Shown: positions 19,447-60,546 of the stretch, in pieces
Layout: every line of letters begins with the position of its first letter
How positions within the stretch are numbered: position 1 is the stretch's first letter
Origin: an uncultured Pseudomonadota bacterium
GTDB taxonomy: Bacteria; Oederibacteriota; Muellerivitia; Muellerivitales; Muellerivitaceae
DNA: 64,000 nt
Assembly: GCA_963836235.1 (NCBI GenBank)
Contig: CAWIIP010000002.1
Span: 448,001 to 512,000, forward strand
Direction: 5' to 3'
Notes under the pieces: model-generated
Told to the model about the DNA's origin: nothing
Databases searched by the model: none
Seen by the model: the letters and a program-made list of their open reading frames with translations, nothing else
Made by a program: the position numbers and the translations under genes

Positions 19447-19455
19447 TTGGGTTCC

Positions 19456-25996: not shown

Positions 25997-26321
25997 AACG
26001 GGCGACGGCTTCATCCTCATCAAAAACCACGTCAAAGTTGGAATAAGCGCCAACCAACTTGAAAAGGTTCTCGACGTAAGGAATGAGACCGACCAACTTG
26101 ATTTCCCCGCCCAGGGCTTTAAAGCGTTGATTTCTTTCGGCTAACTTTGAAATGGCGTTGAGTGAAACATGTTTCACTTGGCGGAAATTTAAAACAACCT
26201 TATTTTTGTTCTCCAAAACCAGGTCCGTCATGGAACGAAGTAAAGCCTCCATATCACTCATGCCGATATCACCGGCCAAGCGCAGGACTGTCACGGTTTC
26301 AGTTGATGTCGAAACTGCCAT
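25986..26321 (-). CDS. STAS-domain protein
   Basis: VLRLAGDI...VVLNFRQVKHV...GGEIKLVGL...LFKLVG pattern. Confidence 0.8.
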   Translation of the reverse strand: MAVSTSTETVTVLRLAGDIGMSDMEALLRSMTDLVLENKNKVVLNFRQVKHVSLNAISKLAERNQRFKALGGEIKLVGLIPYVENLFKLVGAYSNFDVVFDEDEAVARFDS

Positions 26322-26374
26322 TTTTTCCCCTAAACATTCATCTTTTGTCCGCAAAAAGCCAACCGTCAATCGTG

Positions 26375-26728
26375 TTAAGCGATGGCCACGTTGCGTCCTG
26401 TTTTTTCCATCATTTCGGTTACGTTCTGATATGTATCGAAGAGTGTGTCCACGCCCATGGTTCGAAAAAGATGCATGAGACGGCTATTCAACCCCACAAT
26501 CTTCAAATCCCCCCTCTTGAAGCGCACGTGGTTCCAGTGATTGACCAGGGCCCCCAACCCTTTTGCGTTCATAAACGAAACGTCAGTCAAATCCAAAACC
26601 ACACGCATGTAACCTTTTTTCATCAGCGTCTCAATGGCATTCCCCAGTTTCCCCAGGTCGTCCTCGCTCATATCGCCATTGACGTGAACTAGCGAGAACT
26701 TTTCTCTTATTTCGATTCCGATTTCCAT
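26375..26728 (-). CDS. STAS-domain protein
   Basis: VHVNGDM...VVLDLTDVSFMNAKGLGALV...GDLKIVGLN...LFRTMG. Confidence 0.85.
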   Translation of the reverse strand: MEIGIEIREKFSLVHVNGDMSEDDLGKLGNAIETLMKKGYMRVVLDLTDVSFMNAKGLGALVNHWNHVRFKRGDLKIVGLNSRLMHLFRTMGVDTLFDTYQNVTEMMEKTGRNVAIA

Positions 26729-26746
26729 TTAAGTTCCCCTACCCAA

Positions 26747-27217
26747 TTAAAGGTTTAAGGACTGAATGCCTTTATCCGATAACTTTTGGCCCAAAAGCTC
26801 CAAGGATTGCGACGTCTGCGCATGGTAGTTTTCGTACTTCGCCTTATCCCAAATCTCCACACGGTGAAGCATTCCAACGATCACCACGCTTTTTCCCAAA
26901 CCCGCTTCCTTGCGCAATACGGGCGAAATTACGATGCGTCCCTGTTGGTCAATCTCCACTTCGTCCGTAGCCCGAAGAACCGTTCTTTGAAACTGCCGAA
27001 CCTCCGCGTTTAAGGTGTCGAGCGAAGAGAGCTTTTCCTCTATCTTTTTCCAAGCGTCCATCGGGTATAAGAAAAGACATTGGTCGAATCCCAAGGTCAA
27101 AACCAAGGGCGTCTCGTGATCGCTTTTAATCTGTTCACGAAACCGGGCCGGTATGTTCAGGCGGCCCTTATCGTCAACGGTGTTATGAAAAATCCCTCGG
27201 AACACTTTTTTCTCCAC
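26747..27217 (-). CDS. mraZ: dcw transcriptional regulator MraZ
   Basis: two DxxGR motifs (DDKGRLNIPARFR, DQQGRIVI), VEIW. Confidence 0.97.
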   Translation of the reverse strand: MEKKVFRGIFHNTVDDKGRLNIPARFREQIKSDHETPLVLTLGFDQCLFLYPMDAWKKIEEKLSSLDTLNAEVRQFQRTVLRATDEVEIDQQGRIVISPVLRKEAGLGKSVVIVGMLHRVEIWDKAKYENYHAQTSQSLELLGQKLSDKGIQSLNL

Positions 27218-38823: not shown

Positions 38824-38826
38824 AAT

Positions 38827-38865
38827 AAAAAAGCCCTGCGGCGTTCTTACCTTGCCACAGGGCTT
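38827..38865 (-). terminator. intrinsic terminator
   Basis: AAGCCCTGTGGC-N11-GCCGCAGGGCTT followed by a T tract. Confidence 0.8.
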
Positions 38866-38965
38866 GCCCAATGCGATACGACAACCAATAGGTCCCACTT
38901 ATAAATAAAACTCACTTATACCGTGAAGGAAAGCCTCTCATCCCGATCGGTCTTTAACCCTTCAC
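38827..38965 (-). ncRNA. candidate 139-nt sRNA
   Basis: begins 6 nt after an ECF-type -10; 5' hairpin GTGAAGG...CCTTCAC, AU-rich middle, ends in AAGCCCTGTGGC...GCCGCAGGGCTTTTTT terminator; no ORF of note. Confidence 0.5.
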
Positions 38966-38971
38966 ATGCTC

Positions 38972-38998
38972 TAGACGGCCCTTTTATCCTTTAGTTCA
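38972..38998 (-). promoter_or_regulatory. ECF sigma-type promoter
   Basis: TGAAC-N16-CGTCTA (AAC/CGTC spacing typical of ECF promoters). Confidence 0.55.
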
Positions 38999-39056
38999 AA
39001 ATTTTTAAACTTTTTATTCATTAAAAATAAACCGTTTTCAAGTTAAACCAAATTCA

Positions 39057-40370
39057 TTACTGGTACTGCTGGAGCCACTGCCTTAATCGATCATTGGCCG
39101 GATCCAATTCCAAAACCTTACGATAAGACTCTAAAGACTTATCGAAATAAAGCCTTCCTAATCGGCTCCATGCTTTTTCAAAATTAGGATCCTTTTCCAC
39201 GGCTTTGATGTAAAGATCCAAGGCCTCTTGTTTAAGACCCATTCGGAGTTTTTCTTCCGCCTGATCAAACAATTGCTGCGGAGTCAATTCATCCTGGGAG
39301 GTAACCTGGAATTTCAACATCACAGGCTTATTACCCGCGGCTGGCGGTGGAAGAGCGGGATTCGAACTGATTCCCGGTAAAATACTCATCGGAGGAGGAT
39401 TAACCCCGGTTTTGGGGGCTTTCACCGGGGGCTCAAAAAACACGGAAAGGCCGAAACGTTGGATATTGCCTAAATTTCCCTCGAAAGAAAAGGAATAGTC
39501 GAATTGAAACTGCCCTACCCTCGCGCCCGCCCCGAAATCCAGCCCCTGCATTCCCCCCAATTGGTTATCCTGCAAATCATAGGAATATCCCGCCCTTAAA
39601 AAATAGCTCTTTTGATAAGAGTACTCAAAACCCGAATTAAGATGGCTGTTTCCTTGAAAAGCCAAGTCCCCTCCCGCGCTGACCAACAAGGAATGCAATT
39701 CTCTTTTAGCTAGGCTAAACCGGTAAGCGGCTCCCCAATAAAAATCTGCCGGTAAATTATATCCTCCGGTTTCCACTCCTAAATTTTTCATGTTGAACCC
39801 AATTGAAAAACGCTCGACGGGTTTGGCCCAAAAACCCAGGTCCCATAGCAAACCGGTGTGAACAACACCGGCAATGTCCTGGCGAATCCATTGGCTGGCG
39901 AATCCCAAGGAAACGTCCTTATCGATCAGGAAACCGAAACCTCCCTCCGCGCTAATGTCAAAAGGAGTGTAAGTACCAATCAAATTCCCAAAGTTGTCCC
40001 GCTGGTCAATGCTTCCATAATTGAGGTAATTGATGCCCAAGGCTAAGGTTCCCGCCGGACCCATGGGGTAAAGGCCGGCCACGTTGTCATAAAACCCATC
40101 GGCTAGGTAGGTATTATGGGTTAACACCATCTCGGGCTGTTGGATCTGGGCCAATCCCGCCGAGTTGTAGTGAAGCGCCGAAAGATCATCCGCAACCGCG
40201 GTGAAGCTTTCTCCCATCCCCACCGCCCGGGCCCCCATCCCGAAAGAAAGTATGGGAAAAGCGGTAGAGCTATTGGAAGAAACGGTCTGGGAGAAAAGCC
40301 GGTCCGCGCAGGCGACTATTCCCAAACCTATCAAAACAATGAGTAACCTCTTGTTCAAAATAGGCCTCAA
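39057..40370 (-). CDS. PorV/PorQ-like (UPF0164) outer-membrane beta-barrel with C-terminal TPRs
   Basis: signal peptide; GARAVGMGESFTAVADDLSALHYNSAGL; alternating beta strands (FLRAGY, FDYSF); Pro linker then TPRs. Confidence 0.85.
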   Translation of the reverse strand: MRPILNKRLLIVLIGLGIVACADRLFSQTVSSNSSTAFPILSFGMGARAVGMGESFTAVADDLSALHYNSAGLAQIQQPEMVLTHNTYLADGFYDNVAGLYPMGPAGTLALGINYLNYGSIDQRDNFGNLIGTYTPFDISAEGGFGFLIDKDVSLGFASQWIRQDIAGVVHTGLLWDLGFWAKPVERFSIGFNMKNLGVETGGYNLPADFYWGAAYRFSLAKRELHSLLVSAGGDLAFQGNSHLNSGFEYSYQKSYFLRAGYSYDLQDNQLGGMQGLDFGAGARVGQFQFDYSFSFEGNLGNIQRFGLSVFFEPPVKAPKTGVNPPPMSILPGISSNPALPPPAAGNKPVMLKFQVTSQDELTPQQLFDQAEEKLRMGLKQEALDLYIKAVEKDPNFEKAWSRLGRLYFDKSLESYRKVLELDPANDRLRQWLQQYQ

Positions 40371-40549
40371 AAAAGATTCAATTAATAAAACGGATTGACT
40401 ACTCCAAAAGACTTTTCTCTATTCCCATAAGACCACTCTCGTCTGACCCACGCATTATAGTCGGGAAAAACAGATATTATTCAGAGGATAAAACACCTTA
40501 AAGGACCACTATCCAAAAGTTATTTCGAAGAAAAACGATAGGCTTTTCG

Positions 40550-41338
40550 TCACGGTGTTCGAACAACCGCGAATTTAGTCGGTTTTGATTTTCGGGCTCC
40601 GGAGATTCCTTGCGTCTGAACAAAATAGTAATAAATCCCATGGGAATATCGGGTGATATCAGCGGGGTAAATATTAGGCCCCGGAACGCCACTGGTGTTA
40701 TAGGTCGCCGCCAACCCTACCGTCGAATTATAAACCGAAATTTTCACCTGGCTTGCCTCACAAAGAACAAACAGAAAGTTCATCGTGTTTCCCATGGCTG
40801 GATTTGGATAAGAATAGGTTTCGATCGTGCTGCAGTCACTGGCTGTGAAAGGGGGCGTAGGAGTTGATGAAACCACCGGAGTGGCCGTCACCGTAAATGT
40901 AACAGTGCCCGTGAAGGTTGTGGTTGAAGTAAAGGTCTGAGTTGGGGAAAGCGTAGGTGTGGCAGTGCTGGTTGGTGTAAACGTAAAGGTTAAAGTGAAA
41001 GTGTTTGTTTCCGTATTCGTCGAGGTGGAAGTGCTGGTCACAATTGCGGTTGAAGTTGGCGTATTGGTCGGGGTGTTCGTAAGGGTATTGACGGCGGTCA
41101 TTGTGGGTGTGCTTGTCGCGGTGCCAATAGGCGTATTGGTGGCCGTGTTGGAAGCCGTGGAAGTCGGGGTATTGGTGACTAGAATCGTCGGACTAGGCGT
41201 TGGGCTCATGGTGAGTGTGCAAGGACTACAAAAAGTTGCCGTATTCGTGGGGGTACTGGTGAAAGCCTGGCAAAAGCCCCTGGAATGGACTTCAAATAGG
41301 ATGAACCACAAGCCCAAAAAGCACAGGAATTTTTTCAT
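40550..41338 (-). CDS. exported Thr/Pro-linker protein with T9SS-type-A-like C-terminal domain
   Basis: signal peptide MKKFLCFL, about 140 aa of T-x-T repeats, then YSYPNP...ISVYN...GIYYY...TKFAVVR. Confidence 0.82.
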
Positions 41339-41391
41339 CCGAGAGATTCTAACTTTATGATGAATTTGGGAGGTAGATAACATGTTGTGAT

Positions 41392-42369
41392 TTATTTAGG
41401 AAGAATCTTTAAGATGCCCGACATCTTTTTATTCCCCAGATCGAGTACGACCGTATAGTCGCCCGGAAGAACCGCGTTCCCTAGTTCGTCCTTCCCATCC
41501 CAATCAACATAATGGTCACCCGTTTCCAGGACACCCTGATAAAGATGCCGAATCAAGAGTGTGTTGGAATCGTAAACCGTCACGATGACATTTTGCGTCT
41601 TTGGCATATCAATAGTAACTCGGAGGGAATCCCCCTCCGCCGTGGAAGATGATCCGGAATTCACCGCAGGAATCCCTGGAGGCGCGGTATTTGTAACTGA
41701 GGACGGGATCGGGCTGGTTAGATTTTGCGCGTTTACGGATGAGAAACTACCTGGATTCGAGATTGAAGGAACGGTTGCGCCAAATCCACTTTCACGGGTC
41801 GCGGGACCCAAAGATGACACGGAAGGATTCTTCCCATTGGAATCGGCATGGGACGCCACATCAACTTCTGTTCCTTTCAAACGAGAAGACTGAGGTTCTG
41901 AGGCCAATTGGGGCGAAGGGGAACTCATCTTTTTCTCCGATTTGACTGTTAAGGTTAGACCTTTTGTTGGCTGATTTCCCGGGACTGGTTGAGACTCCGG
42001 TAAGGCAAGCATGGCGGATGGCTGGCTGTTGATCGATGATTGAATCATTGGCCAAATTCGGCGAACTCCAAAATAAAGGACTCCTGCCGAGGCAAGGACT
42101 AAGACGATTTTGTTTGTAAGCTTAAGGAAACGCAAAATGGGTGAGGGTTTGTATTGGCTCCAAATGGCGCCTATCTTGCCGTCTAAACGGCCCGCCATTT
42201 CATCAATTTGAGCCTCCGATACCGGCCCCAGTCTTTGGGCAACAGCTTGAGTCACCTGTTCAGCGAAAAGGGGATTCTTACGAATGAGCGCGTCGAATTC
42301 GGCTTGGGCTTCTTCGGTAAAAGACCCATCCAAATAGATTTGTAATAAGGTTTCAGGAGTGAATTTCAT
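41392..42369 (-). CDS. putative anti-sigma factor: N-terminal helical domain, TM, Ser/Pro linker, FlgD-Ig-like C-terminal domain
   Basis: ATGA overlap with ECF stop; [10 protein letters not shown] anti-sigma-like start; VTVYDS...LIRHL...[16 protein letters not shown]. Confidence 0.75.
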
Positions 42370-42923
42370 GAGCTTCTCTCTTCCCATCCTGGGAGTTTTT
42401 CCCGAACTTTTTCAATCAACTTTTGCCTTGCCCGAAATAACCCTGATGTGACACTACCTACCGGTATCTTCAAGCGGTTCGCGATGGATTCGTAAGAGAG
42501 TCCTTTGATTTCCCGCAGGGTGATCAGTTCCTTGTCCCTTCCCTCCAGTTTTTGGATTTCTTCCCGGAGCATCAGAAGGGCTTCTTCAGGATAAGGCGTT
42601 GTTTGTTCTCTAGACGGGTGACTGGCAAAAAAATCCACTGAAAAGGGCATTGTTTTTTTCTTCTTTTCCAAAAAATCCCGGCAAAGATTAACCGCGATAT
42701 GGTTCAACCAAGTGGCCAAGGAACACTCAAATCGGAAGTTTTCAAGGTTTTTAAGGGCTTTTATGAATGTTTCCTGAACCATATCCTCGACTTCGCTGTC
42801 GCTTCCCAGGAAATACCAACAGGCACGGATAAGGGGTTTTTTATGGGTGTTGTAGAGTTCTTGGAAAGCGGCGGCATGACCTTTGAGAATGCGCTTAACA
42901 AGTTCCTTTTCGTTTGGATTCAA
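42366..42923 (-). CDS. ECF sigma-70 factor
   Basis: EDMVQETFIKA, TWLNHIAVNLCRD, LSYESIA...GSVTSGLFRAR. Confidence 0.93.
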   Translation of the reverse strand: MNPNEKELVKRILKGHAAAFQELYNTHKKPLIRACWYFLGSDSEVEDMVQETFIKALKNLENFRFECSLATWLNHIAVNLCRDFLEKKKKTMPFSVDFFASHPSREQTTPYPEEALLMLREEIQKLEGRDKELITLREIKGLSYESIANRLKIPVGSVTSGLFRARQKLIEKVREKLPGWEERSS

Positions 42924-43039
42924 GGAAATTCCTCAAATATGGACTATAGGCATATAGATCCCGTTGGAAGACGATAAAATTATACAAAATAAAAGGCAAT
43001 TAGGGCATGAGAAGGAAGGTAAAAGGCAAAGTAAGATTT

Positions 43040-44944
43040 TTATTGTCCCAAATGGTCAATAGTATCCATCATCTGATTAACGATGGCCATCATACGAGAA
43101 TTGGTGTCAAAACCTCTCTGAGCGACGATCATATTGCTAAGTTCGGTTGTTAAATCCACATTGGATCCTTCCAAAGAATCATCCTGTACCGCTCCAAAAT
43201 TTCCCTGCCCCGCTATCCCTATGTGGGAAGTACCCGTATTGGAAGACAAGGTGAAATCATTGTTTCCAGCTTGGCTCAAGCCCTCGGGATTTTGAACTTG
43301 CTCTAAGGCTACTTGGGCCAGGCCCAAGGTTTGACCATTGGAAAAAGCTCCTTCAATCACCCCTGTCGGATCGAAGGAAAGACCCTGCAATTGCCCTTCT
43401 GCATATCCGTCTTGCGAAGCCGCATAAACCGTGTTGTTGGGCACATAGTTGTTCACTCCGTTGACCATCTTATAGCTTCCGTCCGCGTCGCTATAAAGAC
43501 CGTTCCTTTCACCCGTACCCAACAACCCAAAGTCCCCAAAATTAAGGGAAATAACCGTAATCTCGGCTCCCTGGGTGGGAATGGCGGAAACAGGAGGATT
43601 CGAATTTTCGGGCGGAAGATAAATGCGGGGAATGGACATGTAGTTAAAATTCAACCCGGCAACCCCCTGAACCCCTCCGACCCCTCCACTGGAAGCTAGC
43701 GAACCATCCGTGTTGAACCATAAAAAGTCACCGAAAAAACCTTGGCCAAAAAGGCCCCGGTCATAGGTAAATATCTGTCCTGGTACGGAAAAATCTCCTT
43801 CCCCGATTCCTGTTCCACCGACTAGGTCGGCCGTGCTGACGGACTGGCCACCGGTCGTGTCAAAGGCGTACCAAGCATAGCAGACCTGATTAGGGCCACT
43901 GGGATTGTTGATGCCATCGGCCCCCAAGTCATTGACCTGATAAAACTGGACGGTGATTTGACGGGCATTCCCGTTGGAATCGTAAACGGTCTCGTTCATC
44001 TGATCGGCTGGCGGAATAGGCGGCTGTTGGTCCCACAAGTAACTTCCCGCATAAGCTTGGGCGGTTCCTAAATTAATGTATCCATTTTCCAAAGGGGCTG
44101 GAGGAGGATTGATGCCTGGAATAAAAGTATCAAGATTTTGGACCTGTTGCAGGGTAAAACCACCCGTGGCTGTCGGCTGAAGCGTCATGCGGTTCGTATC
44201 AATCCCATTGTTGAGGGGCGGAATATTCAGGGCAAGGGCAAGGCCGATGGGGAGAGTGGGTTTCCAAGTGGGAGGAGGGCCCAAAAAATAGTTGGGGACC
44301 AAATCCAAAACATTCGGCTGTTGAAGGGCATCTAAGTTGCCCTTAAAAGAGACTTCTGTGGTGGCTTTGGGCGCCAAGGTCATCTGAGGATCAATTTGAA
44401 TGCTTTGGGTACTGGAAATTTCGGCGGAGTTCAAATTCAATTCCGCATTGGTAACTTGCGCGAATCCTCCATTCCTAGCGGAGTTGATGATGGTGGGGGC
44501 ATACTGCAAAGTGGCATTGATGCCTTGGATTCGGTCCCCATTGGCGTTGACCAGATAACCCTGACTATCGAAAGTCAGGTTTCCCGCTCGGGTCAAATAG
44601 CTCTGGTTACCTTGTTTGGCGACTAGAAACCCATTCCCTTGAATAGAGATATCCGTGGTGATCCCGGTGTTGATCGTCGTTCCCTGGGTAAAGATCGTTT
44701 CAATTGAAGCTAATCTTGTTCCCAATCCAACCTGCCGCGGGTCAACACCTCCCTGCCCAGTGGATGGATTATCTCCTGAACCGCTTAATAAGGTTTGACT
44801 GAACTGATTAGCAAATTCAGCTCGGCTGGCCTTATAAGCCACCGTGTTGACGTTGGAAATATTGTTTCCAATCACATCCAGCCATTGGCTGTCGGATTGC
44901 AACCCAGAAATAGAGCTAAACATGGCCTGAAGGCCCATGAACAT
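43040..44944 (-). CDS. flgE: flagellar hook protein FlgE (long, no flagellar neighbours)
   Basis: SGL...LDVIGNNISNVNT.AYK N-terminus; TRAGNL; VYDSNG; LEGSNVDL..EL..MIVAQRGF..N C-terminus. Confidence 0.9.
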   Translation of the reverse strand: MFMGLQAMFSSISGLQSDSQWLDVIGNNISNVNTVAYKASRAEFANQFSQTLLSGSGDNPSTGQGGVDPRQVGLGTRLASIETIFTQGTTINTGITTDISIQGNGFLVAKQGNQSYLTRAGNLTFDSQGYLVNANGDRIQGINATLQYAPTIINSARNGGFAQVTNAELNLNSAEISSTQSIQIDPQMTLAPKATTEVSFKGNLDALQQPNVLDLVPNYFLGPPPTWKPTLPIGLALALNIPPLNNGIDTNRMTLQPTATGGFTLQQVQNLDTFIPGINPPPAPLENGYINLGTAQAYAGSYLWDQQPPIPPADQMNETVYDSNGNARQITVQFYQVNDLGADGINNPSGPNQVCYAWYAFDTTGGQSVSTADLVGGTGIGEGDFSVPGQIFTYDRGLFGQGFFGDFLWFNTDGSLASSGGVGGVQGVAGLNFNYMSIPRIYLPPENSNPPVSAIPTQGAEITVISLNFGDFGLLGTGERNGLYSDADGSYKMVNGVNNYVPNNTVYAASQDGYAEGQLQGLSFDPTGVIEGAFSNGQTLGLAQVALEQVQNPEGLSQAGNNDFTLSSNTGTSHIGIAGQGNFGAVQDDSLEGSNVDLTTELSNMIVAQRGFDTNSRMMAIVNQMMDTIDHLGQ

Positions 44945-45177
44945 TCCGCCAAATCGGATTTTTTAGGATCGAGGGTCGTTTAGACGAAGTAATCCAACTG
45001 TTTCTAACGGTTTTTTTCTTTAAAACATGAGCTTATTAAGGGATTGAATCAAAAAAATTCACGGTTGTGGATAACTTTTTCAGTCGGAATGTCCTGAAAA
45101 AACCATTAAAAAGCAGGAATTAAGAACTAATGTCCCTGTTCGGAAGGTTAATGGCCCCTCCGTTCCATTTCTAAATT

Positions 45178-45238: not shown

Positions 45239-45742
45239 TTAATTGGAAGCAGCTGTCATCTTTTTACGGTATTGAGGCCCGACTTGAACCATTCCTGAAC
45301 AATTTGCCGACCCACATTGACACTTGAACTCATAACTCCAATTACCCACATTATCGGTATAGCGATAATCCCAGCTGATCTCCTCTCCCGCTGGAATATC
45401 TCGGGTAGAGATCAACACGATTCCGTTGACCACTTTGGCGCTCGGGTCACAGGCATGGTTAACGAAACAAAGGGGATCACAACCATTCTCATAATCGTGA
45501 AGCATGATGAACCCAGGATAAATGTACATCGCGTGGTCAATGTTCAACCTATCCGCGGGAATCGTACGAGTCAGCGTTTCGATTTCGTCTTCTGGAACCA
45601 CAATCCCACCGAATACACCGACAACCTCATTCTCTTTGATATCACGTATGGCATAAACGCCCTTACCTTCCATACCGCTTTGCTTAACCTCCACTGCGTC
45701 GCTAACCCAAGGCTTAATTTTCATTGGATTTTGTTCAACCAT
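45239..45742 (-). CDS. SET-domain lysine methyltransferase with post-SET Cys cluster
   Basis: GKGVYA, VNHACDP, GEEISWDY, CQCGSANC. Confidence 0.92.
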   Translation of the reverse strand: MVEQNPMKIKPWVSDAVEVKQSGMEGKGVYAIRDIKENEVVGVFGGIVVPEDEIETLTRTIPADRLNIDHAMYIYPGFIMLHDYENGCDPLCFVNHACDPSAKVVNGIVLISTRDIPAGEEISWDYRYTDNVGNWSYEFKCQCGSANCSGMVQVGPQYRKKMTAASN

Positions 45743-45937
45743 CCTTTTTACAGTTTGGCCGGTCCCCAAACCCGGTCCTTAATGGGGGAGATTCTAGCTC
45801 AAACCCCCTGGAGGGTTCATCGGTTCTTTAGGATTTTTTAGGCCGGTTTTAAAGGGTTTTTGAAAGGACTACTAGGCCACCAGAGACCCGTCTCCGAGCC
45901 TAGAAGTCCGGGTTTCTCCGGTCCCTCGATCTTTTCG

Positions 45938-46493: not shown

Positions 46494-49034
46494 TTATTTT
46501 AGGATTAAGAGTTTAGAAATCCAGTGGTTGGAGGGAGTTGTGACAAGAACGTAATAAATGCCATTTGCCCCTGAAGACCCAATGAAATTATCCGGATCGA
46601 GGCTGAAATAGAAATTTCCGGCCGGCACAAAATGGCTTGTATTCTCATAAACCCTTCGGAATGCCGTGGTGAAAACCTTCACGGTCACAAAATCGTGGGG
46701 ATTGCTAAAAGAAATGGACAAAGTGACTGTACCAGACCCTTTCAAGGGATTCGGATAGAGAATTGGGGTTGCCATTATAGAAGCCGGTATCGTTTCTGTT
46801 GCGGTGGGTGTCAACGTACCTGCGGCTGTAACCGTCGGAGTAAGGGTGGGTGTCCAACTCACGGTCGAGGACACTAAGGGTGTCTCTGAAAGAGTCGGAG
46901 AGGTTGTATAGCTTGAAGTGGGAGTGATACTGGGTGTCATAGTTGAATTTTCCGTAACCGTACTTGAAGGTGAAGCCGTTGGCGTTGAGGTGAAGCTTAA
47001 TGTTGGAGTTCTGGTCGGGCTATTACTGGGCGTCGTTGAAGCCGTATCAGTAGAGGAAAAAGTCGGTGTCAAAGTAGGTGAATTCGTGACACTGGATGTA
47101 GGAGTGACAGTTACTGTAAAAGTAGAAGTCCATGTCAGGTTAGGCGTATCAGTCACTGTTGAGGTTGAAGTCAGGGTGGGTGTGGAGGTAGGTGTTCCCG
47201 TCAATGTCGGCGTGGAAGAAGGGCTATCGGAGGGGGTCAAACTGGGGGTAAAGGTTGGTGTCGGACTGTTCGTGGGAGTAGCGCTGAAGGTGAACGTGGA
47301 CGTAAGGGTGCTGGTGGATGTCACAGTGAAAGTAGGCGTTAAAGTCGGGGTTCCGGTTTGGGTGGGTGTCTCGGTGATGGTCTGGGTAGGCGTCAAGGTG
47401 AAAGTGCTGGTAGGCGTTCCCGAATCGGTGGCGGTGGCTGTTAATGTAGGCGTTCCGGTTATGGAATTGGTAGGACTGTTCGTTGGCGTGGAGGTAATGG
47501 TCGGAGTTCCGGAAGCTGTCCAAGATGGAGTTGTTATTGGGGAATAAGTGGGAGTAGCCGTACTCCCGAGGGGACAATAACTGGCATATATCGGGTCATA
47601 AATGTCGATTCCCACGTTGTAAGAAACGGGATAACTGGAAGCCTTTGCGTCGAAACCATAAGAATTCACTAGGCTCTGGGGAGCGTAGGCTAACGAGTTG
47701 GTAACGGGAGACGAGGCGGTCTGGTAATTCAAGACATAACTCGTGGGCGCGGAAAAGATATAAGCGAGCCAATAGTTTCCGGGAGATAAAACGGTGGCTG
47801 GAATACTAAAACTGTTCCATCCCGAAACCATCGTTTGCGGATTGGCAGGATCGGATTGACCAATGAGGGAACCCATCAAGGAAACGGACTGTGAAGTATA
47901 AATCCCAACCACTGCCTTTGTTCCAGAGCTTTGAGGAAGGCAATAAAGCGAAATGGTTTCCACATTGCCTGTGACCGGCAGGTTATAAACACAGGCCCGT
48001 AAACCGTAAAGGTAACTGGTGGCAGGTCCACTGGAGGCCATAGTAACCGCGTTGCCGAAAAGCATGGCCAAGGCGCCACAATCGGGTGTCAAGCTTGGAT
48101 TGGGCGTGAATGAAATAGTAAAAGTTGCCGTAGGAGTCCAGGTCGTGGTGGCTGAAGGGGTATTGGTAGGGCTAGGAGTACTGGTGAATATAGTTCCAGT
48201 ATTGGTAGGGGTAAAAGTGGGGGTCAAGGTTGGGCTGAGGGTGGGTGTATTCGAAAGAGTAGGCGTATTCGAGGGAGTGGGCGTAATGGTAGGTGCGTCG
48301 CAATAAACCGCATAGATGGTATCAGAGATATAAGGGCTTGCCGAATCGTAAGAAATGGTGGCCGGCATATTGGTCGGCATGGTTCCAAACGTTACTGAAC
48401 CAGAGGTATAAGCCAAAGCGTTGGCGGTTGTGGAAGTATTCCAGTAAACCGCGTGACTGACGGTCGTATTGTAACAATAGGCCAACCAATAATTTCCAGG
48501 GCCAAGATAAGTTGGTGTAATGGAAATCCCATTCCATCCCACAATTGTAGTTTGGGCCGCCGATGAAACGACCAGGCCCCCGATATTACTCGCCGGACCG
48601 CTATATATTCCCGCCATGACCTGGATACCGGAAGTGGGGCACTCTAACCATAAACTGTAAACCGTGGCTGGGGCGTTCAAATTGAACATGCTGGCTCTCA
48701 TCGTATTCGAGGAAAGCCCGTTGCTTGAAAAACTTGTGATCCCCAGAATATTAGCCGAAGCTCCACAGGGGGGCGTCAAAGTAGGATTGGGGGTGAAAGA
48801 AAATGTAGGTGTACCGGTATCAGTTGGGGTGCCGCTTGGAGTCCGGGTAAGGGTGAGGGTGGGAGTATTCGTAATGGTGTGTGTCGCCGTAATCGTCGGG
48901 CTGTCCGTCGGCGTACGAGTGGGAGTCTTGGTCGCCTGCGCCAAAATTATGGCTGGCAATCCCCAATAAATGAGACATAGTAAGGTAGGTATATATAAGC
49001 GTTGAACCAAAACCATTCTCATTATCCCTTTCAA
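46494..49034 (-). CDS. large exported Thr/Pro-rich protein with two repeated beta domains and T9SS-type-A-like CTD
   Basis: signal peptide; duplicated ~155-aa domain (GWN..I..T.L.PGNYWLAY...IYA.YC); C-terminal ILYPNP...VKVFT...GIYYV...KLLILK. Confidence 0.85.
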   Translation of the reverse strand: MKGIMRMVLVQRLYIPTLLCLIYWGLPAIILAQATKTPTRTPTDSPTITATHTITNTPTLTLTRTPSGTPTDTGTPTFSFTPNPTLTPPCGASANILGITSFSSNGLSSNTMRASMFNLNAPATVYSLWLECPTSGIQVMAGIYSGPASNIGGLVVSSAAQTTIVGWNGISITPTYLGPGNYWLAYCYNTTVSHAVYWNTSTTANALAYTSGSVTFGTMPTNMPATISYDSASPYISDTIYAVYCDAPTITPTPSNTPTLSNTPTLSPTLTPTFTPTNTGTIFTSTPSPTNTPSATTTWTPTATFTISFTPNPSLTPDCGALAMLFGNAVTMASSGPATSYLYGLRACVYNLPVTGNVETISLYCLPQSSGTKAVVGIYTSQSVSLMGSLIGQSDPANPQTMVSGWNSFSIPATVLSPGNYWLAYIFSAPTSYVLNYQTASSPVTNSLAYAPQSLVNSYGFDAKASSYPVSYNVGIDIYDPIYASYCPLGSTATPTYSPITTPSWTASGTPTITSTPTNSPTNSITGTPTLTATATDSGTPTSTFTLTPTQTITETPTQTGTPTLTPTFTVTSTSTLTSTFTFSATPTNSPTPTFTPSLTPSDSPSSTPTLTGTPTSTPTLTSTSTVTDTPNLTWTSTFTVTVTPTSSVTNSPTLTPTFSSTDTASTTPSNSPTRTPTLSFTSTPTASPSSTVTENSTMTPSITPTSSYTTSPTLSETPLVSSTVSWTPTLTPTVTAAGTLTPTATETIPASIMATPILYPNPLKGSGTVTLSISFSNPHDFVTVKVFTTAFRRVYENTSHFVPAGNFYFSLDPDNFIGSSGANGIYYVLVTTPSNHWISKLLILK

Positions 49035-49170
49035 AGCGTGGTTATTCTAACGGCTTTTAAAGGGAAAACTTGATAAAACCAGCTATTAGTTAGGTATTTA
49101 CCCTTATCAACAAGTTCTATTACCAGCAAAACATTCATCTTTCATGAGCCTTAACCCCTGAAAGAAATTT

Positions 49171-53362: not shown

Positions 53363-55663
53363 TCATCGGTTATAATAGTAATAATCAAACGGCATAAAAT
53401 ATTCAAAAATAGTTTCACCTTGTTTGTTTAAATAGTAAACACTTGTTCCAATATTGACTGAAGCTATTCCTTCTTCAAAATCAGTACCGCCTTCGTAAAT
53501 GGGTTGGACGATGAAATTCCCCTTTTTGTCAATGTAACCAAGGTTACCCTGTTGATCGCCTTTTCCGGGGACTCGAACAACCGCTAAACCATCATGAAAA
53601 CCCCCGACATCTAGGAACTCGGGTTTAATAACGATATTCCCATTTTTATCGATGAAACCCCATTTGCTATTGGTAACAGTTTTTCCGATTTTGACTGCGG
53701 CGTATCCTTCGGAAAAAGGTTTGGAAGTAATAAAAGCTATTTTAATTTTTAAATTACCTTTAGTGTCGATGAACCCAGACACGTCATTATCGAAATATTT
53801 GACGGCTGCGAGGCCCTCTGAAAAAGGCAAGGCAGCCTCAAAAGCGGGTTGTATAGCGAAATTTCCAGTTTTATCAATGTAACCATATTTGCAGTAACCA
53901 ACTTTGTGTTTTTCCTGCCTATCTTGAGCCGCAGCGGCCAATCCTTCGGAAAAGGAATCGGCACAGCAAAACTTCAACGGGGTAACTAATTTGCCGGAGG
54001 AATTCATATATCCTGTCTTTTCGTCTTCAACCCTGACCTGTATCAATTCTTCAGAAAATTGAGATCCGCCATCCACTTCATATTGGGGCTCGACAACAAC
54101 TTTCCCGGTCTGATCTGTAAAACCCATCTTGTTACCCTGGTAATACTTGACCAAGGTTTGACCTTTTAAAGCACATTTGGCTTTATAAGTATCTTCGTAT
54201 TGGCTCAAAGTGTTTCCGTTGGCATCTATGGAATATATATCTTTTCCAATGAAGGCCAGCCCGATACCATCAGTAGGAACATGGATTCCGAAATCATACT
54301 TTCCGGGCGAAATCAAAATTTTTCCGGTTTGGTCGACGAATCCACATTTCAAACCAGTACTCACCCTGGCCAACCCATTGTGAAATGGCCGAATATCGCT
54401 GAACCACCCCGAGATCATCTTTCCTTCGGTGTCGAAAAATCCAACTTTCTTCGATTGTAAAATCACCCCCACCACAACTTTTGCCAATTTCAGCGAGTTG
54501 TCATTAGAAGGAGGCAGGCTTTTCCAATTACCTCGATCGCAAACATAAGCATGACCTTCAAGGAAAAGGCCATAGAAGTCCGTTGTTGAAATTCCGTTCA
54601 ATTGGGTAATCTTTTTAATTGTCCTATTTAAAGCGTTTCTATCAACGTGTTGGGTTTCTAAGAGAGGTTTTCTTTTTATCACCGATGAGGATGTCCGCTT
54701 ATCTGGGGTTAAAGTGGTTATATCGTCCTGGCAGTTTTGGCAATCATCAGGCGGAGTTTGGTCGATTTCCGCAAAAACAGTTTCCCCTTTTTTATCGATT
54801 ACCGTGGTTTGAAACGCAGGTGGTGCCCCGGACCGCCTCCTGAATTCTGCATATCCATTCATAAAACTAGGTGGATAGTCCGAAAGGATGTCGGATGAAT
54901 CAATAACAACCTTCCCTGTTTTATCAATAAATTCATATCCACTGAAGTCTTCACCCTTTTCTTGTACGCAAGCCAGTCCCTCGCTAAATGATGCGGCCAG
55001 CGCGTAATCCGTTTTTATAATTTCTTTTCCACTGGCATCAATGTAGGACCAAACACCGTCTTTGTTAACGCTGGCAAGGCCTTCAGAAAAGGGGTTAACG
55101 GCTTCATAAACAACAGGTGTCACTAATTCGTTATGGGTGTTAATATAGCCGAATTTTCCATCCAGTTTGACCCAAGCCAAACCTTCTGCGAAATCCCCAA
55201 GATCATCATATTTTATATCTATAACTTCCTTTCCAATTGAATCGACGTAACCAAGTTTAGAATTTAATTTTACTTTGTAAAAGCCGTCGGAATACCCGGC
55301 GCATGTGTCATATTTGGGTGGAAGTACGATTTCACCGTTCTTGCTAACAAGTCCTATTTTCCCGCCTTTTTTAAACCACGTGACATCGCTTAAAAAGTCG
55401 CCTGCATCCTCGAATTGGGGTTGGATCGCGAGTTTCCCAGTCGTATCGACAAACCCGACCCCACCCTGAAGAAACGGAAAAAGTCTTATAGTTTTTTCAT
55501 TATTCGAATTGGAAGTGGTAGGCACTAAAAAAAACAAACTGAAAGGGATTAAAAAAAAGGGTACTTTCGATGAATTCATTTTCAGCATTCTTACTGTCTC
55601 TAAAACTCCATTAACCAGGAAGGAAAACTTCACAATTGCCATAAATGGGTTTCGCATATTCAT
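53363..55663 (-). CDS. exported WG-repeat (KWG-type) protein
   Basis: many F(S)EGLA.V...GYID..G..VI repeats; signal-like segment after Met at 55579. Confidence 0.9.
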   Translation of the reverse strand: MNMRNPFMAIVKFSFLVNGVLETVRMLKMNSSKVPFFLIPFSLFFLVPTTSNSNNEKTIRLFPFLQGGVGFVDTTGKLAIQPQFEDAGDFLSDVTWFKKGGKIGLVSKNGEIVLPPKYDTCAGYSDGFYKVKLNSKLGYVDSIGKEVIDIKYDDLGDFAEGLAWVKLDGKFGYINTHNELVTPVVYEAVNPFSEGLASVNKDGVWSYIDASGKEIIKTDYALAASFSEGLACVQEKGEDFSGYEFIDKTGKVVIDSSDILSDYPPSFMNGYAEFRRRSGAPPAFQTTVIDKKGETVFAEIDQTPPDDCQNCQDDITTLTPDKRTSSSVIKRKPLLETQHVDRNALNRTIKKITQLNGISTTDFYGLFLEGHAYVCDRGNWKSLPPSNDNSLKLAKVVVGVILQSKKVGFFDTEGKMISGWFSDIRPFHNGLARVSTGLKCGFVDQTGKILISPGKYDFGIHVPTDGIGLAFIGKDIYSIDANGNTLSQYEDTYKAKCALKGQTLVKYYQGNKMGFTDQTGKVVVEPQYEVDGGSQFSEELIQVRVEDEKTGYMNSSGKLVTPLKFCCADSFSEGLAAAAQDRQEKHKVGYCKYGYIDKTGNFAIQPAFEAALPFSEGLAAVKYFDNDVSGFIDTKGNLKIKIAFITSKPFSEGYAAVKIGKTVTNSKWGFIDKNGNIVIKPEFLDVGGFHDGLAVVRVPGKGDQQGNLGYIDKKGNFIVQPIYEGGTDFEEGIASVNIGTSVYYLNKQGETIFEYFMPFDYYYYNR

Positions 55664-56082
55664 GACATTGGATGACTTTCTTTCGGAAGCCGCAACTTTA
55701 CCGCATCGAACACCTGACGGGCCATGGCCATTGCCTCATCCGCTTCTTTCGTTTCAATTTCCTCAACGTCACCCGGATAACGAAATTTCCACGCATATTC
55801 GGTTAAGACTGCGGCTTTTCGGAGGATTGGTTCCAAGGTCCCATCCACCTTAGAACAAGCCTCTCCGAGTTCGACTAAGTTATGAGTTTTGCGGAAAGGT
55901 TGGTCATGCCAGCATAAAAACGCCTTTAAGGATTTTTCGGCTGATTGTTGGGAGTGAAACAAAACGTCTTCCAAAAAGGGAGGATCGGCTTGACGATCAA
56001 TGGTTCCGCCCCTCAAGTCCTTGGAGGCTTTTTCAAGCCAAGCCCTGGTCTCAGCAGCGCGGTCTGCCTCAAGCGGCCCCAT
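55660..56082 (-). CDS. HEPN-domain protein (HEPN-MNT pair)
   Basis: FHSQQSAEKSLKA, KTHNL, FRYPG. Confidence 0.9.
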   Translation of the reverse strand: MGPLEADRAAETRAWLEKASKDLRGGTIDRQADPPFLEDVLFHSQQSAEKSLKAFLCWHDQPFRKTHNLVELGEACSKVDGTLEPILRKAAVLTEYAWKFRYPGDVEEIETKEADEAMAMARQVFDAVKLRLPKESHPMS

Positions 56083-56392
56083 AAAGCAGACGGCCTTCCC
56101 TGAGAATAGTAGCGGGCAAGGAAGCTATCACGGCTTTTCGGCTTTCAAAGGCGGTATGGGTCCAAACCAAAACATCTGCCGCAGTTCCCGTACCCCAAAG
56201 CTTTTCATAAGCCAAACGGCTTCGGCGCAGGGGGGAGGGTGCGTTATCGGGGACTACGACCATCAAATCGAAATCGCTGTCAGGGCCTTGATCGCCCCTG
56301 GCGGTGGAGCCAAAAAGATAAATCCGCTCGGGGTGGTAAGCCTCCGCCAAACGGTTCACGATTTCAGTCAATTTTGAATCTGTTCCCTGCAT
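56069..56392 (-). CDS. minimal nucleotidyltransferase (MNT)
   Basis: LFGSTARGDQGPDSDFDL (GSx10DxD); overlaps the HEPN gene. Confidence 0.92.
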   Translation of the reverse strand: MQGTDSKLTEIVNRLAEAYHPERIYLFGSTARGDQGPDSDFDLMVVVPDNAPSPLRRSRLAYEKLWGTGTAADVLVWTHTAFESRKAVIASLPATILREGRLLYGAA

Positions 56393-56724
56393 TTGGTTGC
56401 CCCTTTGAAAAACCATTATACCCACATGAACCTTAATTTGTCGTTTCCTAGATTAACACCCCTTAAAACCAAAACCACGCTATCAGGAAGGATTAACCCC
56501 TGTTTAAACCGGCTATAACCAACAACCTACCAATTACCCCAAACTACCATTTCCCTTACCCTGTCTTTGTCTTACCCACCTACCACGCTAACCTACACCC
56601 ACCACTCCAATCCCAACCTACCACCTCTGAATACAGCTCCGGTTTGCTTTGCCTTGTCTTTGAATTTGATCTTGAATTTGAATTTTCCTTAATCTTGTTT
56701 TTAAAAATAACGTCTCCTGGTTTT

Positions 56725-58804
56725 GTAGAGTAGAACGCAGGCGCGGTAATGTGCAGTTCGGCCCTTGATCCGTGTCCACCGTTTCCGGCTTCGTGCCCCA
56801 ACGAGGGCTTCCCATCATCCCGTCTCCAGCATCCCCTCATCAAACCGTACGTGAGGTTTTCCCTCATACGGCTTTCCGACAACCTTCATCCGGCGGCGTG
56901 CGAGTAGAGCGTTGTTATCTGATACAGTCCAAGGCGTTTCAGTTCTTTCGCCGATTCCTTCCATTCCCTACGTATACCCTTCCTCCTTCGGAACAGGCGG
57001 AACCTCTTAAGAACATAAAACTGTAGTTTGGTAAAGTGTTTTCGGGTGTCCCCGATTTTGAAGTAATTGGACCATCCCCTGATTACCGGGTTTACAGTCC
57101 GAATTAAATCCACCATCGGGTACCGAAGTCGCCATGGTTCGGTCATCACCTGTTTCAAATTCTCGGTGATTTTCCTCATGGCCTTGCGGTTCGGCCAACT
57201 CAGACAGCGGGGAATTCCCCGCCCTCCGGGTGGCTTGCCATAGCAGAAATGGAATCCCAGGAAATCAAAACCTACTTTCCCAGACCACATCTCTACCAAC
57301 TGCGTCTTTTCCGGATGCAGTTCCAGCCCCAGGCGCTTCATCAAATCCTTCAAAATCCCAAGGCTTTCTTCCGCATGGCTTTGACTGGTGCACAAGACCA
57401 CAAAATCATCGGCGTAGCGCACCAGCCTTCCCAGTTTTCCGTGACGCTTGTTCCACACTTTATCCAGCACATGAAGGTAGACGTTCGAGAGCAGTGGAGA
57501 TATCACTCCTCCTTGCGGCGTGCCTTGGATAGCCGGTTCCAGCCGACCATCCACCAGCACCCCCGCTTTCAGCCATCCCCAGATCAGCTTCAACACATTC
57601 CTGTCGCTGATCCTTTGGCAGACTAGAACCATCAGCTTGTCATGGTCTATGGAGTCAAAATACTTCCGAATGTCCCCATCTACCACGAACCGATACCCAT
57701 GGTTTATCAGCTTCTTGATTTCCCCATGGGCCTGCCTGGCTCCCCGCTTTGGCCGAAAACCAAAAGAGCATTCCAAGAAATCCGCTTCAAAGACGGGCTC
57801 CACCACCTTCCGACAGGCGGCTTGGACTACCCGATCCCGGATGACCGGAATCCCCAACGGCCTCTTGCTTCCATCGGGTTTGGGTATTTCCACCCGTCTG
57901 ACCGGCTTAGGGCGGTATTCCCCATTTTGAAGTTTATATTGGAGCGCTTTCAGGAAAGGAATGACTCCTATTTCCTTCTCGATCTTTTCCAACGTCTCTC
58001 CGTCCACCCCTCCTTGGCCTTTGTTCGCCCTTACCTGTTGCCATGCCGCCACCAAGACATCCCATCGGGTCATCTTGTCGTACAGCGCATGAAACCGCCG
58101 GTTCGGGCTCCTCTTGGCCGCTCGGTATAGCTCCCTTTGAAGAGTTCGCACTTTGTCATCAGAGTTGTTAGTCTTCTCAGACATTCTCTAGCGCCTCCCT
58201 TGTCAGGTTGCTTGATTGAAGCAGGGGTCCTTCCCTCTGGATGGTTTTGTTGTCCATCCTTCATCGGTACTGTGACCCCCTCCGACTTCCTTCCGCCACG
58301 GCTCCCTTTCAGTGCCACTTTATAGGAGCCGCTCTTATGGCGGGTAGGACCTCCCAGGTTGCTTGTAAAGCCTTTCCAGCATTCCGTTCCCTATACGCCG
58401 GGGGACTCGCCCCGCTTGCTCCAGACTCTTCAGCGGGATTGTAGCCTTCACCTGCATGAACGAGGTTCGGCATCCCCTTTCACCTTTCGGTGCCTCTCTC
58501 TCGGCGCGGCAAGATTCACTTGATGTTACGGACTGCTGAATTGTTCCTCCCCTAAAGAGAGTTTATGACCTCGTTTCAAAGCACCAATTCTCACTGGTAC
58601 TTTGGAGGCTGACTTCCAGGCTCTCTGGTGATTACCTGGTCAGGACTTGGCTACCATTCACCAAATAACCCCAAATGGCATCTTCACCTAATTCACTCAT
58701 CACAACCTTTAGGATTCGACTACCACCTGAGTTTCTACCACCTACCATTACTGGTAACCTCACCTGCTGGCTCTACAAACCTTCATCTTCACTTCCTGGC
58801 ACAC
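56725..58804 (-). mobile_element. group II intron, 2080 nt, IIB-like domain V
   Basis: 5' GTGTG at 58804; DV GAAAGCCGTATGAGGGAAAACCTCACGTACGGTTT (56876-56842); 3' end CTACTCTAC at 56725; removal restores a 12-bp inverted repeat. Confidence 0.9.
56886..58184 (-). CDS. ltrA: group II intron reverse transcriptase/maturase without endonuclease domain
   Basis: RPLGIPVIRDR, GFRPKR, GTPQGGVISPLLSN, RYADD, FDFLGF, thumb IRGWSNYF. Confidence 0.96.
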   Translation of the reverse strand: MSEKTNNSDDKVRTLQRELYRAAKRSPNRRFHALYDKMTRWDVLVAAWQQVRANKGQGGVDGETLEKIEKEIGVIPFLKALQYKLQNGEYRPKPVRRVEIPKPDGSKRPLGIPVIRDRVVQAACRKVVEPVFEADFLECSFGFRPKRGARQAHGEIKKLINHGYRFVVDGDIRKYFDSIDHDKLMVLVCQRISDRNVLKLIWGWLKAGVLVDGRLEPAIQGTPQGGVISPLLSNVYLHVLDKVWNKRHGKLGRLVRYADDFVVLCTSQSHAEESLGILKDLMKRLGLELHPEKTQLVEMWSGKVGFDFLGFHFCYGKPPGGRGIPRCLSWPNRKAMRKITENLKQVMTEPWRLRYPMVDLIRTVNPVIRGWSNYFKIGDTRKHFTKLQFYVLKRFRLFRRRKGIRREWKESAKELKRLGLYQITTLYSHAAG

Positions 58805-60291: not shown

Positions 60292-60546
60292 ATGGTGGAT
60301 CGTAGGAAGAATGTCGAACGGCGGAATTACTTAATGTCGGACAAAGACATTGCCGAAAAAGCCGGGGTTTCCCCCAATACCGTCCGCTATTGGCGGCAGA
60401 CCGGTGCCCTTCCCTTTGTGAAGGTTGGCAAGTATCCGAGGGTTTGGTATTCGGTGTTTCTTCAAGTTTTTAAAAAACCCCTTCCATCTTGGGCGGACTC
60501 TGATTATAAAATGCCAAGTGCTGGGGACATTAGGAGGGACGCATGA
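60292..60546 (+). CDS. HTH excisionase/recombination directionality factor-like protein
   Basis: DIAEKAGVSPNTVRYWRQTGALPFVKVG; SD GGAGG; ATGA overlap with the integrase. Confidence 0.8.
   Translation: MVDRRKNVERRNYLMSDKDIAEKAGVSPNTVRYWRQTGALPFVKVGKYPRVWYSVFLQVFKKPLPSWADSDYKMPSAGDIRRDA

Follow-up and report, generated by a model that had tools for sequence, protein, structure and literature searches.

In the FecI-FecR-FecA system and in the SusC-linked pairs of extracytoplasmic function (ECF) sigma and anti-sigma factors, the periplasmic domain of the anti-sigma factor is thought to contact the periplasmic extension of an outer-membrane barrel. The locus described here is located on the minus strand of a 64-kb stretch of DNA from an uncultured bacterium (contig CAWIIP010000002.1, positions 448,001 to 512,000; to be referred to as the window, and numbered from its first nucleotide). 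As in the FecIRA type, a sigma factor, a single-pass anti-sigma factor and an outer-membrane barrel are encoded together. However, the barrel is of the PorV/PorQ (FadL-like) kind with a tail of tetratricopeptide repeats (TPR), rather than a TonB-dependent transducer with a signalling domain at its N-terminus, Pfam finds no FecR domain in the anti-sigma protein, and the locus falls outside this class. A second comparison can be made with the envelope-stress pairs RpoE-RseA, to which the sigma-E-dependent small RNAs MicA and RybB belong, and SigW-RsiW. The locus shares with these pairs the type of sigma factor, the single-pass anti-sigma factor, a promoter of the GAAC...CGT class, and a terminator-ended candidate small RNA located by an outer-membrane gene. 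It differs from them in that homology of the anti-sigma protein to RseA or RsiW was not detected, the sigma gene has no ECF promoter of its own, and the RNA has no Rfam match.

Type IX secretion systems (T9SS) are ascribed to Bacteroidota in passages of PMC10994853 and PMC12618676. According to parts of PMC7712824, PorA of the Porphyromonas gingivalis T9SS, a small protein whose C-terminal sorting domain (CTD) interacts with PorV, influences the ECF sigma factor SigP through PorXY. This pathway is similar to the locus in tying a small T9SS-CTD protein to PorV and in influencing an ECF sigma factor for envelope and secretion genes. On the other hand, it uses a two-component PorY/PorX relay, and the sections concerned describe no anti-sigma factor that bears the domain. 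In the locus, an immunoglobulin-like (Ig) domain lies within a classical single-pass anti-sigma factor, outside Bacteroidota, and the predicted output includes a small RNA. The first-pass annotation had proposed that the anti-sigma protein presents a substrate-like CTD, whose engagement by the translocon or PorV could release the sigma factor, and knew of no such circuit. Our literature searches brought up no description of an anti-sigma factor that bears a FlgD_ig or CTD-like domain in connection with a PorV-like barrel, and the main text of an ECF reclassification paper (PMC7826278) mentions neither FlgD nor PorV. The idea that a CTD protein feeds an ECF sigma factor is not unprecedented, because of the published PorA-PorXY-SigP pathway (PMC7712824, in the parts noted above).

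Two other systems are related to parts of the locus. Type B CTD substrates with adjoining cognate PorP/SprF genes, as presented in sections of PMC12618676, also have a cargo gene beside a gene for a dedicated outer-membrane partner. In comparison, the CTD at the locus resembles type A (Por_Secre_tail), and its partner is a PorV/PorQ-family protein. The FadL-like proteins of Treponema pallidum, in the portions of PMC8407342 devoted to them, combine a UPF0164/FadL-type barrel with a helical, TPR-containing and presumably periplasmic tail, as does the barrel of the locus. Those portions discuss them as small-molecule importers and describe no sigma or CTD context.

The sigma-to-barrel gene unit

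The locus consists of genes for an ECF sigma factor, the anti-sigma protein with its C-terminal Ig domain, a secreted CTD protein and the barrel, followed by an ECF-type promoter and a candidate small RNA. All the features listed by the first-pass annotation were found in place by hidden Markov model (HMM) scans, AlphaFold2 (AF2) models and motif searches. The observations support the four genes as a conserved, tightly packed unit. We tentatively read this unit as a trans-envelope signalling module in which the barrel is coupled to the anti-sigma factor in the periplasm, a reading that we regard as possible rather than probable.

The sigma factor (42366..42923, 185 aa) is of the RpoE/SigW type and has only regions 2 and 4. 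Its scores for Sigma70_r2 (58.7 bits), r4_2 (45.8 bits) and TIGR02937 (87.7 bits vs. a cutoff of 42.9) place it among the ECF (group 4) sigma-70 factors. It stays below the cutoff of the specific RpoE equivalog (101.6 vs. 236 bits), and its nearest neighbors among solved structures bear the labels sigma-H (6in7), sigma-E (1or7) and SigW (5wuq). The true start of the anti-sigma protein (41392..42369), as located by the family alignment, is the ATG at 42369 (N-terminal residues MKF), which overlaps the stop codon of the sigma gene as ATGA. The genes of the 277-aa CTD protein (40550..41383) and of the 437-aa barrel (39057..40370) follow. Directly upstream of the sigma gene is flgE (43040..44944), for a flagellar hook protein of 634 aa (TIGR03506 FlgEFG, 234 bits vs. 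a cutoff of 70), and the five genes from flgE to the barrel are all co-oriented.

A scan of genome contigs matched 604 stretches, 158 of which encoded a relative, and 80 of these 158 were kept. Of the 80, only four (L001–L004) are full-length relatives, one of them bearing the name candidate division FCPU426, and the match of the remaining 76 is confined to the Ig domain. The window and L001–L004 will be referred to as the five loci. The available portions of papers on FCPU426, including PMC10434106, mention neither flagella nor secretion. The order in L001–L004 is hyp260, an 846-aa CTD protein, msrA, a SET-domain protein, flgE, sigma, anti-sigma, CTD protein, barrel, and a convergent ABC transporter, and it is maintained in all four relatives as far as each contig extends. 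The sigma factors are 78–82% identical to that of the window, and the ATGA overlap is present in all five loci. The tight packing of the genes is more telling than their conserved order. The CTD-protein and barrel genes are 9–10 nt apart or overlap in four of the five loci (L001–L004), and are separated by 179 nt in the window.

The spacer between flgE and the sigma gene contains an extended -10 element, TGTATAAT (42979..42986), with the same sequence in all five loci and no second copy in the window. The sigma gene is apparently transcribed by the housekeeping sigma factor, without visible autoregulation. A terminator search of the interval from flgE to the sigma gene found none, and flgE lies directly 5′ of the latter in the window and in the three relatives whose contigs extend there. 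We consider flgE probably a neighbor and not a functional part of the module.

An internal ECF-type promoter within the sigma gene (GTGGAT-N16-CGTCTAGA, 42608–42640, minus strand) was entertained as a weak idea and is not taken as part of the module. Its position weight matrix score is 17.3 bits, compared to 31–39 bits for the intergenic sites. Synonymous sites are conserved in only 4 of its 8 codons, compared to 24 of 119 in the gene as a whole, and the sequence in L001 is CGTCCA. The motif is located in the sequence coding for the linker between regions 2 and 4, and is kept in L002–L004 with an Arg/Ile swap that leaves the DNA motif intact. It could drive the anti-sigma and downstream genes, with weak support at the codon level.

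Ig domains and PorV/PorQ-family barrels

The AF2 model of the anti-sigma protein, based on an alignment of 44 sequences, contains four N-terminal helices (residues 11–78), a long helix (residues 83–119), a disordered segment (residues 120–250) and a β-sandwich (residues 255–328) with pLDDT values above 90. The coupled downstream gene, the predicted cytoplasmic N-terminal helices and the single predicted transmembrane helix correspond to the layout of a class I single-pass anti-sigma factor. Among the candidates scored there are 53 homologues, and FlgD_ig (PF13860) is present in 51 of them. The alignment contains 44; nine with partial coverage were omitted (P0011, P0024, P0025, P0027, P0033, P0034, P0039, P0050 and P0053). 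Conservation in the family is found in the N-terminal ~60 residues and in the Ig domain. The linker, with ~67% Ser, Thr, Pro, Gly, Ala, Asn or Gln residues, is not conserved; it has 133 aa in the window and 72–154 aa (median 115.5) among the 44 members. A search with the N-terminal domain only gave 48 matches, all of the same family, 44 of which carry PF13860; the N-terminal domain and FlgD_ig thus occur together. The Atlas clusters nearest to residues 1–112 are one named 'Anti-sigma factor' (0.93) and another with 39% zf-HC2 (0.90), which is a lead only.

The Ig domain matches PF13860 over residues 252–315 (36.4 bits vs. a cutoff of 27) and has the fold of the FlgD Ig domain. The best structural match is 3osv (E value 4e-5, 28% identity, rms distance 2.5–2.8 Å), and PorZ appears only at rank 16. 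In a sequence search of the PDB, FlgD hook-cap proteins come first (chain 7bhq, E value 1.7e-10), and no T9SS CTD chains are found among the matches with E values up to 10. The top matches of the FlgD_ig profile are giant proteins with 5–17 tandem copies, and the nearest single-domain relatives are not distinguishable in this way.

The likeness of this C-terminus to a secretion substrate, as first proposed, holds in part. The Ig domain stops 8–11 residues short of the C-terminus in all 44 members, and its HMM matches the C-termini of cargo-like proteins. One of these is encoded in the same metagenome-assembled genome (MAG) as L001 (E value 1.8e-12) and combines a signal peptide with two CIA30/CBM11-like domains, a Thr/Pro linker and a C-terminal Ig domain. 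Other cargo-like proteins with matching C-terminal domains, some passing Por_Secre_tail, are encoded in L022, L018 and L069; in other phyla, the matched C-terminal domains of L018, L069 and L071 pass Por_Secre_tail or TIGR04183. On the other hand, the C-terminus of the anti-sigma protein itself matches neither Por_Secre_tail (PF18962) nor TIGR04183 at E values up to 0.1, which leaves it outside the type A sorting domains, and the PNP motif is missing. The hhalign probability against the CTDs of the locus is 7.6%, the Ig profile reaches only E values above 1 against the CTDs of YPNP type in the 277-aa and 846-aa families, and a BLASTP comparison of the Ig domain with both CTD proteins encoded in the window gave no significant match. 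By these comparisons, the Ig domain shares with type A sorting domains only its C-terminal position.

The barrel is followed by a proline-rich linker and a tail, presumably periplasmic, with TPR matches at residues 368–426. Its AF2 model has a pLDDT of 85. A Foldseek search finds PorV of Flavobacterium johnsoniae as the best match (8gl6_F, E value 1e-14; 6h3i_F, E value 1.8e-12), with TM-scores of 0.64–0.66 on the target. In comparison, FadL and TodX have E values of ~1e-8 and TM-scores of 0.4–0.5, and the earlier grouping of the barrel with PorV rather than with FadL-type transporters is confirmed. The barrel is in the PorV/PorQ family by its score for NF033709 (153.6 bits vs. 90) as well as by having PorV as its nearest fold, and it also passes UPF0164 of Pfam (27.0 vs. 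21.4). However, the sequence identity to PorV is only 18%, the tail is an addition relative to F. johnsoniae PorV and PorQ, and the scores fail the cutoffs of the PorV equivalog (NF033710, 75 vs. 250), the PorQ equivalog (NF033711, 102.9 vs. 220) and the PorV model of Pfam (13.5 vs. 27). Judged by these scores, the barrel is a member of the broad PorV/PorQ family and not a demonstrated orthologue of either protein. No SprA or PorKLMN was found in the window by Pfam and NCBIfam scans, and 13 further window proteins, six of them without a Pfam match, gave no T9SS component with NCBIfam.

Among the 120 barrel homologues listed, six carry FlgD_ig after the barrel, five with the architecture barrel-FlgD_ig-OmpA-TPR and one with barrel-FlgD_ig. 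These are P0112, P0117, P0121, P0125, P0135 and P0172, and we found no description of such an architecture. Four of the six were scanned with NCBIfam and pass NF033709 (119–129 bits). Two were compared with the barrel of the window, and can be aligned over the barrel (E values 9e-23 and 2e-21) as well as over the TPR tail (1e-12 and 2e-9), where the alignment reaches the terminal WLxQY of the window protein. By these alignments, the fusions are the same scaffold as the barrel of the window, with FlgD_ig and OmpA domains inserted. The fused Ig domain must be periplasmic, because it is located between the C-terminus of the barrel and the peptidoglycan-binding OmpA domain. The Ig profile of the anti-sigma family matches the fused, internal Ig domain with an hhalign probability of 97.3% (E value 2.5e-11).

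It is mainly because of this homology that a contact between anti-sigma protein and barrel, if there is one, is placed on the periplasmic side. The extracellular loops of PorV bind substrates inside the SprA pore, as presented in parts of PMC10994853. The first-pass annotation considered the linker long enough to cross the periplasm. The shortest linkers of the family, of 72 aa, come to ~25 nm if each residue is taken to add 0.35 nm, and seem too short, by this estimate from length alone, to bring a protein anchored in the inner membrane as far as the extracellular loops. A complex prediction with the barrel (residues 23–437) and the Ig domain (residues 245–331), both given as alignments, scored 0.16 relative to a mark of 0.32, and counts neither way.

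FlgD_ig domains and PorV-like barrels are also encoded together elsewhere. In two Elusimicrobia MAGs (L018, 6741–9574; L011, 210–3829), a secreted multidomain protein ends in a FlgD_ig or type-A-sorting-like domain. The gene directly 3′ of it, which overlaps by 4 nt in L018, encodes a PorV-like barrel fused to a periplasmic domain of the CsgG/LpoB/TolB_N kind. Such pairs are seen in two of the 76 loci that match the Ig domain alone, and the pairing of FlgD_ig with PorV-like barrels thus recurs outside the FCPU426-like lineage. To our knowledge, Elusimicrobia have not been credited with a T9SS.

The protein encoded next to the barrel at the locus has a signal-peptide-like N-terminus and ~150 Thr/Pro-rich residues, followed by a CTD with the motif YPNPA. 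Its score for Por_Secre_tail, with a cutoff of 27, is 17.5 bits in the window and 27.6–32.9 bits in all four orthologues. The first-pass annotation called the protein passenger-less, which is correct for the window and L004. In the other three of the four relatives (L001–L003), the orthologues have 505–538 aa and carry an NHL β-propeller ahead of the Thr/Pro linker; by comparison with them, the passenger-less state of the window and L004 is derived. The linker, the CTD and the adjoining barrel gene are constant among the orthologues. A second CTD protein in the window (46494–49034, minus strand; 846 aa), also present in L001–L003, has Thr/Pro-rich linkers at several places, an unassigned domain that occurs as two internal repeats, and a C-terminal domain of the YPNP type, and is below the cutoffs of TIGR04183 (16.6 bits) and FlgD_ig (17.5 bits).

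The ECF-type promoter, the candidate small RNA and neighboring genes

Downstream of the barrel gene is an ECF-type promoter, TGAAC-N16-CGTCTA (38972..38998, minus strand; TGAACTAAAGGATAAAAGGGCCGTCTA). It was already noted in the first-pass annotation and proves to be real, with one match in the window compared to 0.09 expected. It is conserved in L001–L004 and is the predicted promoter for a candidate RNA gene (38826..38965, minus strand), a conserved element of ~140 nt that ends in an intrinsic terminator. The RNA begins with a 5′ stem-loop, the loop of which is conserved; a variable middle, the conserved stretch GCATTGGGC and the terminator follow. In the consensus structure of 26 base pairs, 87.7% of the cells are paired, compared to 41–53% when the structure is slid along the alignment, 12 of the 26 pairs change on both sides, and none of 500 shuffles reaches these values, the alignment having been fitted to the model in a way that favors the structure. 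A covariance model recovers the RNA in all five loci, with 41 bits for L004, which was left out of model building, picks up a second, tandem copy in L001, and finds no further copy in the window. The promoter, the predicted structure and the terminator support, in silico, a candidate small RNA with an ECF-type promoter.

In all five loci, the RNA gene and its promoter adjoin the barrel gene, or a neighbor inserted there, on its 3′ side. A search of Rfam at permissive E values with the RNA regions of the window and L001 gave chance-level matches only. No consistent target was found in a duplex search against the translation start regions of the window and the other loci, where the energies are meaningless for such long partners. 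In L001 there are tandem RNA-like copies (12077–12230 and 12265–12409), the second without an obvious CGTCTA promoter. The promoter motif is also found ahead of Thr/Pro-rich secreted or lipoprotein-like open reading frames in L002, L003 and L004. Sigma factors similar to sigma-H, sigma-E and SigW have promoters of the GAAC...CGT/TC class. The CGTCTA promoter is assigned to the sigma factor of the locus because of its proximity and its GAAC...CGT class, and on no other ground.

Upstream of flgE there is a different motif, CCGTTAGAA, at 45002–45010 (minus strand). The motif (A/C)TCA(A/T)G-N16-CGTTAG(A/G) is present at this position and at 49045–49053 (minus strand), with equivalents in L001 and L003. 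CCGTTAGRR has two matches only in the 64 kb, upstream of flgE and of the gene of the 846-aa protein. Judging from the motif, one alternative sigma factor may serve both the hook gene and the gene of this surface protein. The SET-domain (lysine methyltransferase-like) protein encoded between msrA and flgE (45239–45769, minus strand) is conserved in L001–L003; such proteins are not known to be common in bacteria.

Elsewhere in the window is a complete dcw cluster (7356–27217, minus strand), with mraZ/rsmH, ftsL, a penicillin-binding protein, murE/F, mraY, murD, ftsW, murG, murC, murB, ddl, ftsQ, ftsA and ftsZ, and the cell is therefore one that bears peptidoglycan. A 766-aa protein (53363–55663, minus strand) contains at least nine WG-containing β-repeats (PF14903, 355 bits). 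At 55660–58184 (minus strand), a reverse transcriptase/maturase of the group II intron type (RVT_1 and GIIM domains) adjoins a HEPN-domain protein, and a phage-type integrase is encoded at 60543–61658 (plus strand).

Possible roles of the locus

As a trans-envelope signalling module specific to this lineage, the locus might function as follows. The constitutive extended -10 promoter would transcribe the sigma gene and the ATGA-coupled anti-sigma gene, and probably also the next two genes (spacers of 8–259 nt), for the YPNP-type surface protein and for the PorV/PorQ barrel that presumably carries or anchors it. The four-helix N-terminal domain of the anti-sigma protein would hold the sigma factor at the inner membrane, and the FlgD-type Ig domain would hang in the periplasm on its disordered tether of 72–154 aa. 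We infer that the Ig domain approaches the barrel system from the periplasm and docks there, either on the TPR tail or on a waiting client. Loss or gain of this contact might make the tether accessible to proteases, in the manner of RseA or RsiW. The sigma factor set free would then fire TTGRAY-N16-CGTCTA promoters, if these are the ones it reads, giving as predicted output the ~140-nt structured RNA encoded immediately after the barrel gene and, in the relatives, also Thr/Pro-rich envelope proteins.

The original proposal, in which the translocon or a PorV-like shuttle recognizes the Ig domain as it would a T9SS CTD and pulls or exposes the anti-sigma protein, so that the sigma factor reports secretion capacity, appears distinctly unlikely to us. 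It draws on the position of the Ig domain at the extreme C-terminus, the matches of its HMM to the C-terminus of the L001-MAG cargo and to sorting-type C-termini in other phyla, the two Elusimicrobia loci where such cargo genes directly precede a PorV-like barrel gene, the PorV-like nature of the barrel itself, and the published CTD-PorV interaction and input of PorA to an ECF sigma pathway (PMC7712824, in the sections concerned). Nevertheless, the sorting-domain models and the PNP motif are missing from the anti-sigma protein, its Ig domain is far from the CTDs of the locus and close to FlgD in the sequence comparisons, and the window has no SprA or PorKLMN genes. Moreover, by the estimate of length, a protein anchored in the inner membrane would need to be threaded through the SprA pore on linkers as short as 72 aa. 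The homology of the Ig domain to FlgD, together with the position of flgE directly upstream of the sigma gene and the missing terminator between them, could instead point to a flagellar checkpoint, in which the FlgD-like domain recognizes FlgE and hook assembly controls the sigma factor; the best solved matches of the domain (3osv and 7bhq) are hook-cap proteins. We regard this as highly improbable. The rest of FlgD is missing (NF005176, 35.2 bits vs. 230, with only the Ig part aligned), the protein is anchored in the membrane with a periplasmic domain while the hooks of external flagella grow outside the cell, the sigma gene has its own conserved promoter, the motif upstream of flgE differs and is common to a non-flagellar protein, and flgE is the sole flagellar gene in the window.

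The locus could also be an ordinary envelope-stress ECF pair, the Ig domain of which senses peptidoglycan, polysaccharide or misfolded envelope proteins, with the CTD protein and the barrel as mere neighbors or members of the regulon. This is somewhat unlikely in our judgment. The sigma factor is RpoE/SigW-like, the ECF-type promoter and the small RNA are parallel to sigma-E with MicA and RybB and need no link to secretion, the CTD-protein and barrel genes of the window leave a gap of 179 nt between them, FlgD_ig is an Ig module of generic kind and wide distribution, and the whole neighborhood is collinear in the relatives. What speaks for more than adjacency is the tight packing of the genes in the four relatives, the homology of the Ig-in-barrel fusions over both the barrel and the TPR tail, and the position of the RNA gene and its promoter, which stay 3′ of the barrel gene or its inserted neighbor in all five loci.

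Several observations weigh against a barrel-to-sigma coupling. The gene order was expected by the first-pass annotation to be conserved in relatives, and it is, in all four; it is nonetheless weak functional evidence, because the entire 16-kb neighborhood is collinear, housekeeping genes included, and all five loci belong to one lineage. The N-terminal domain of the anti-sigma protein has no match to the curated Pfam and NCBIfam models or to PDB sequences. FlgD_ig is generic, with 23,402 representative proteins at E values up to 0.001, and the HMM of the Ig domain recognizes genuine C-terminal sorting-type domains, which leaves room for a role as pseudo-substrate. The argument from the fusions uses distant homologues (25–28% identity), taken as protein sequences alone. 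The ECF motif is absent upstream of the sigma gene, we infer the tie between the CGTCTA promoter and this sigma factor from proximity and class alone, and the second motif, CGTTAG, which precedes flgE and the gene of the 846-aa CTD protein, is an equally possible target.

A wider generalization of the trans-envelope reading is that PorV/PorQ barrels with periplasmic tails (TPR, OmpA or CsgG/LpoB-like) and FlgD-type Ig domains constitute an undescribed outer-membrane module spread over phyla other than Bacteroidota, maybe without a canonical T9SS. The Ig domain would be supplied in cis within the tail, at the end of a neighboring cargo protein, or on an anti-sigma factor, the last giving a barrel-to-sigma switch with a new small RNA output in the FCPU426-like lineage. 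We consider this generalization unlikely as it stands.

If the coupling is not real, the locus would be an ordinary envelope-stress sigma pair beside surface-protein genes. If the trans-envelope reading is true, this would be the first shuttle or anchor barrel of the PorV/PorQ family that is wired directly to transcription via an anti-sigma factor, in a phylum without a cultured member and outside Bacteroidota. It would offer a simple, testable model for how the export or anchoring of surface proteins is monitored, and the few riboregulators listed for envelope stress would gain one more small RNA with an ECF-type promoter. It would further suggest a habitual partnership of FlgD-type Ig domains with PorV-like barrels, which bears on how C-terminal sorting domains are recognized.

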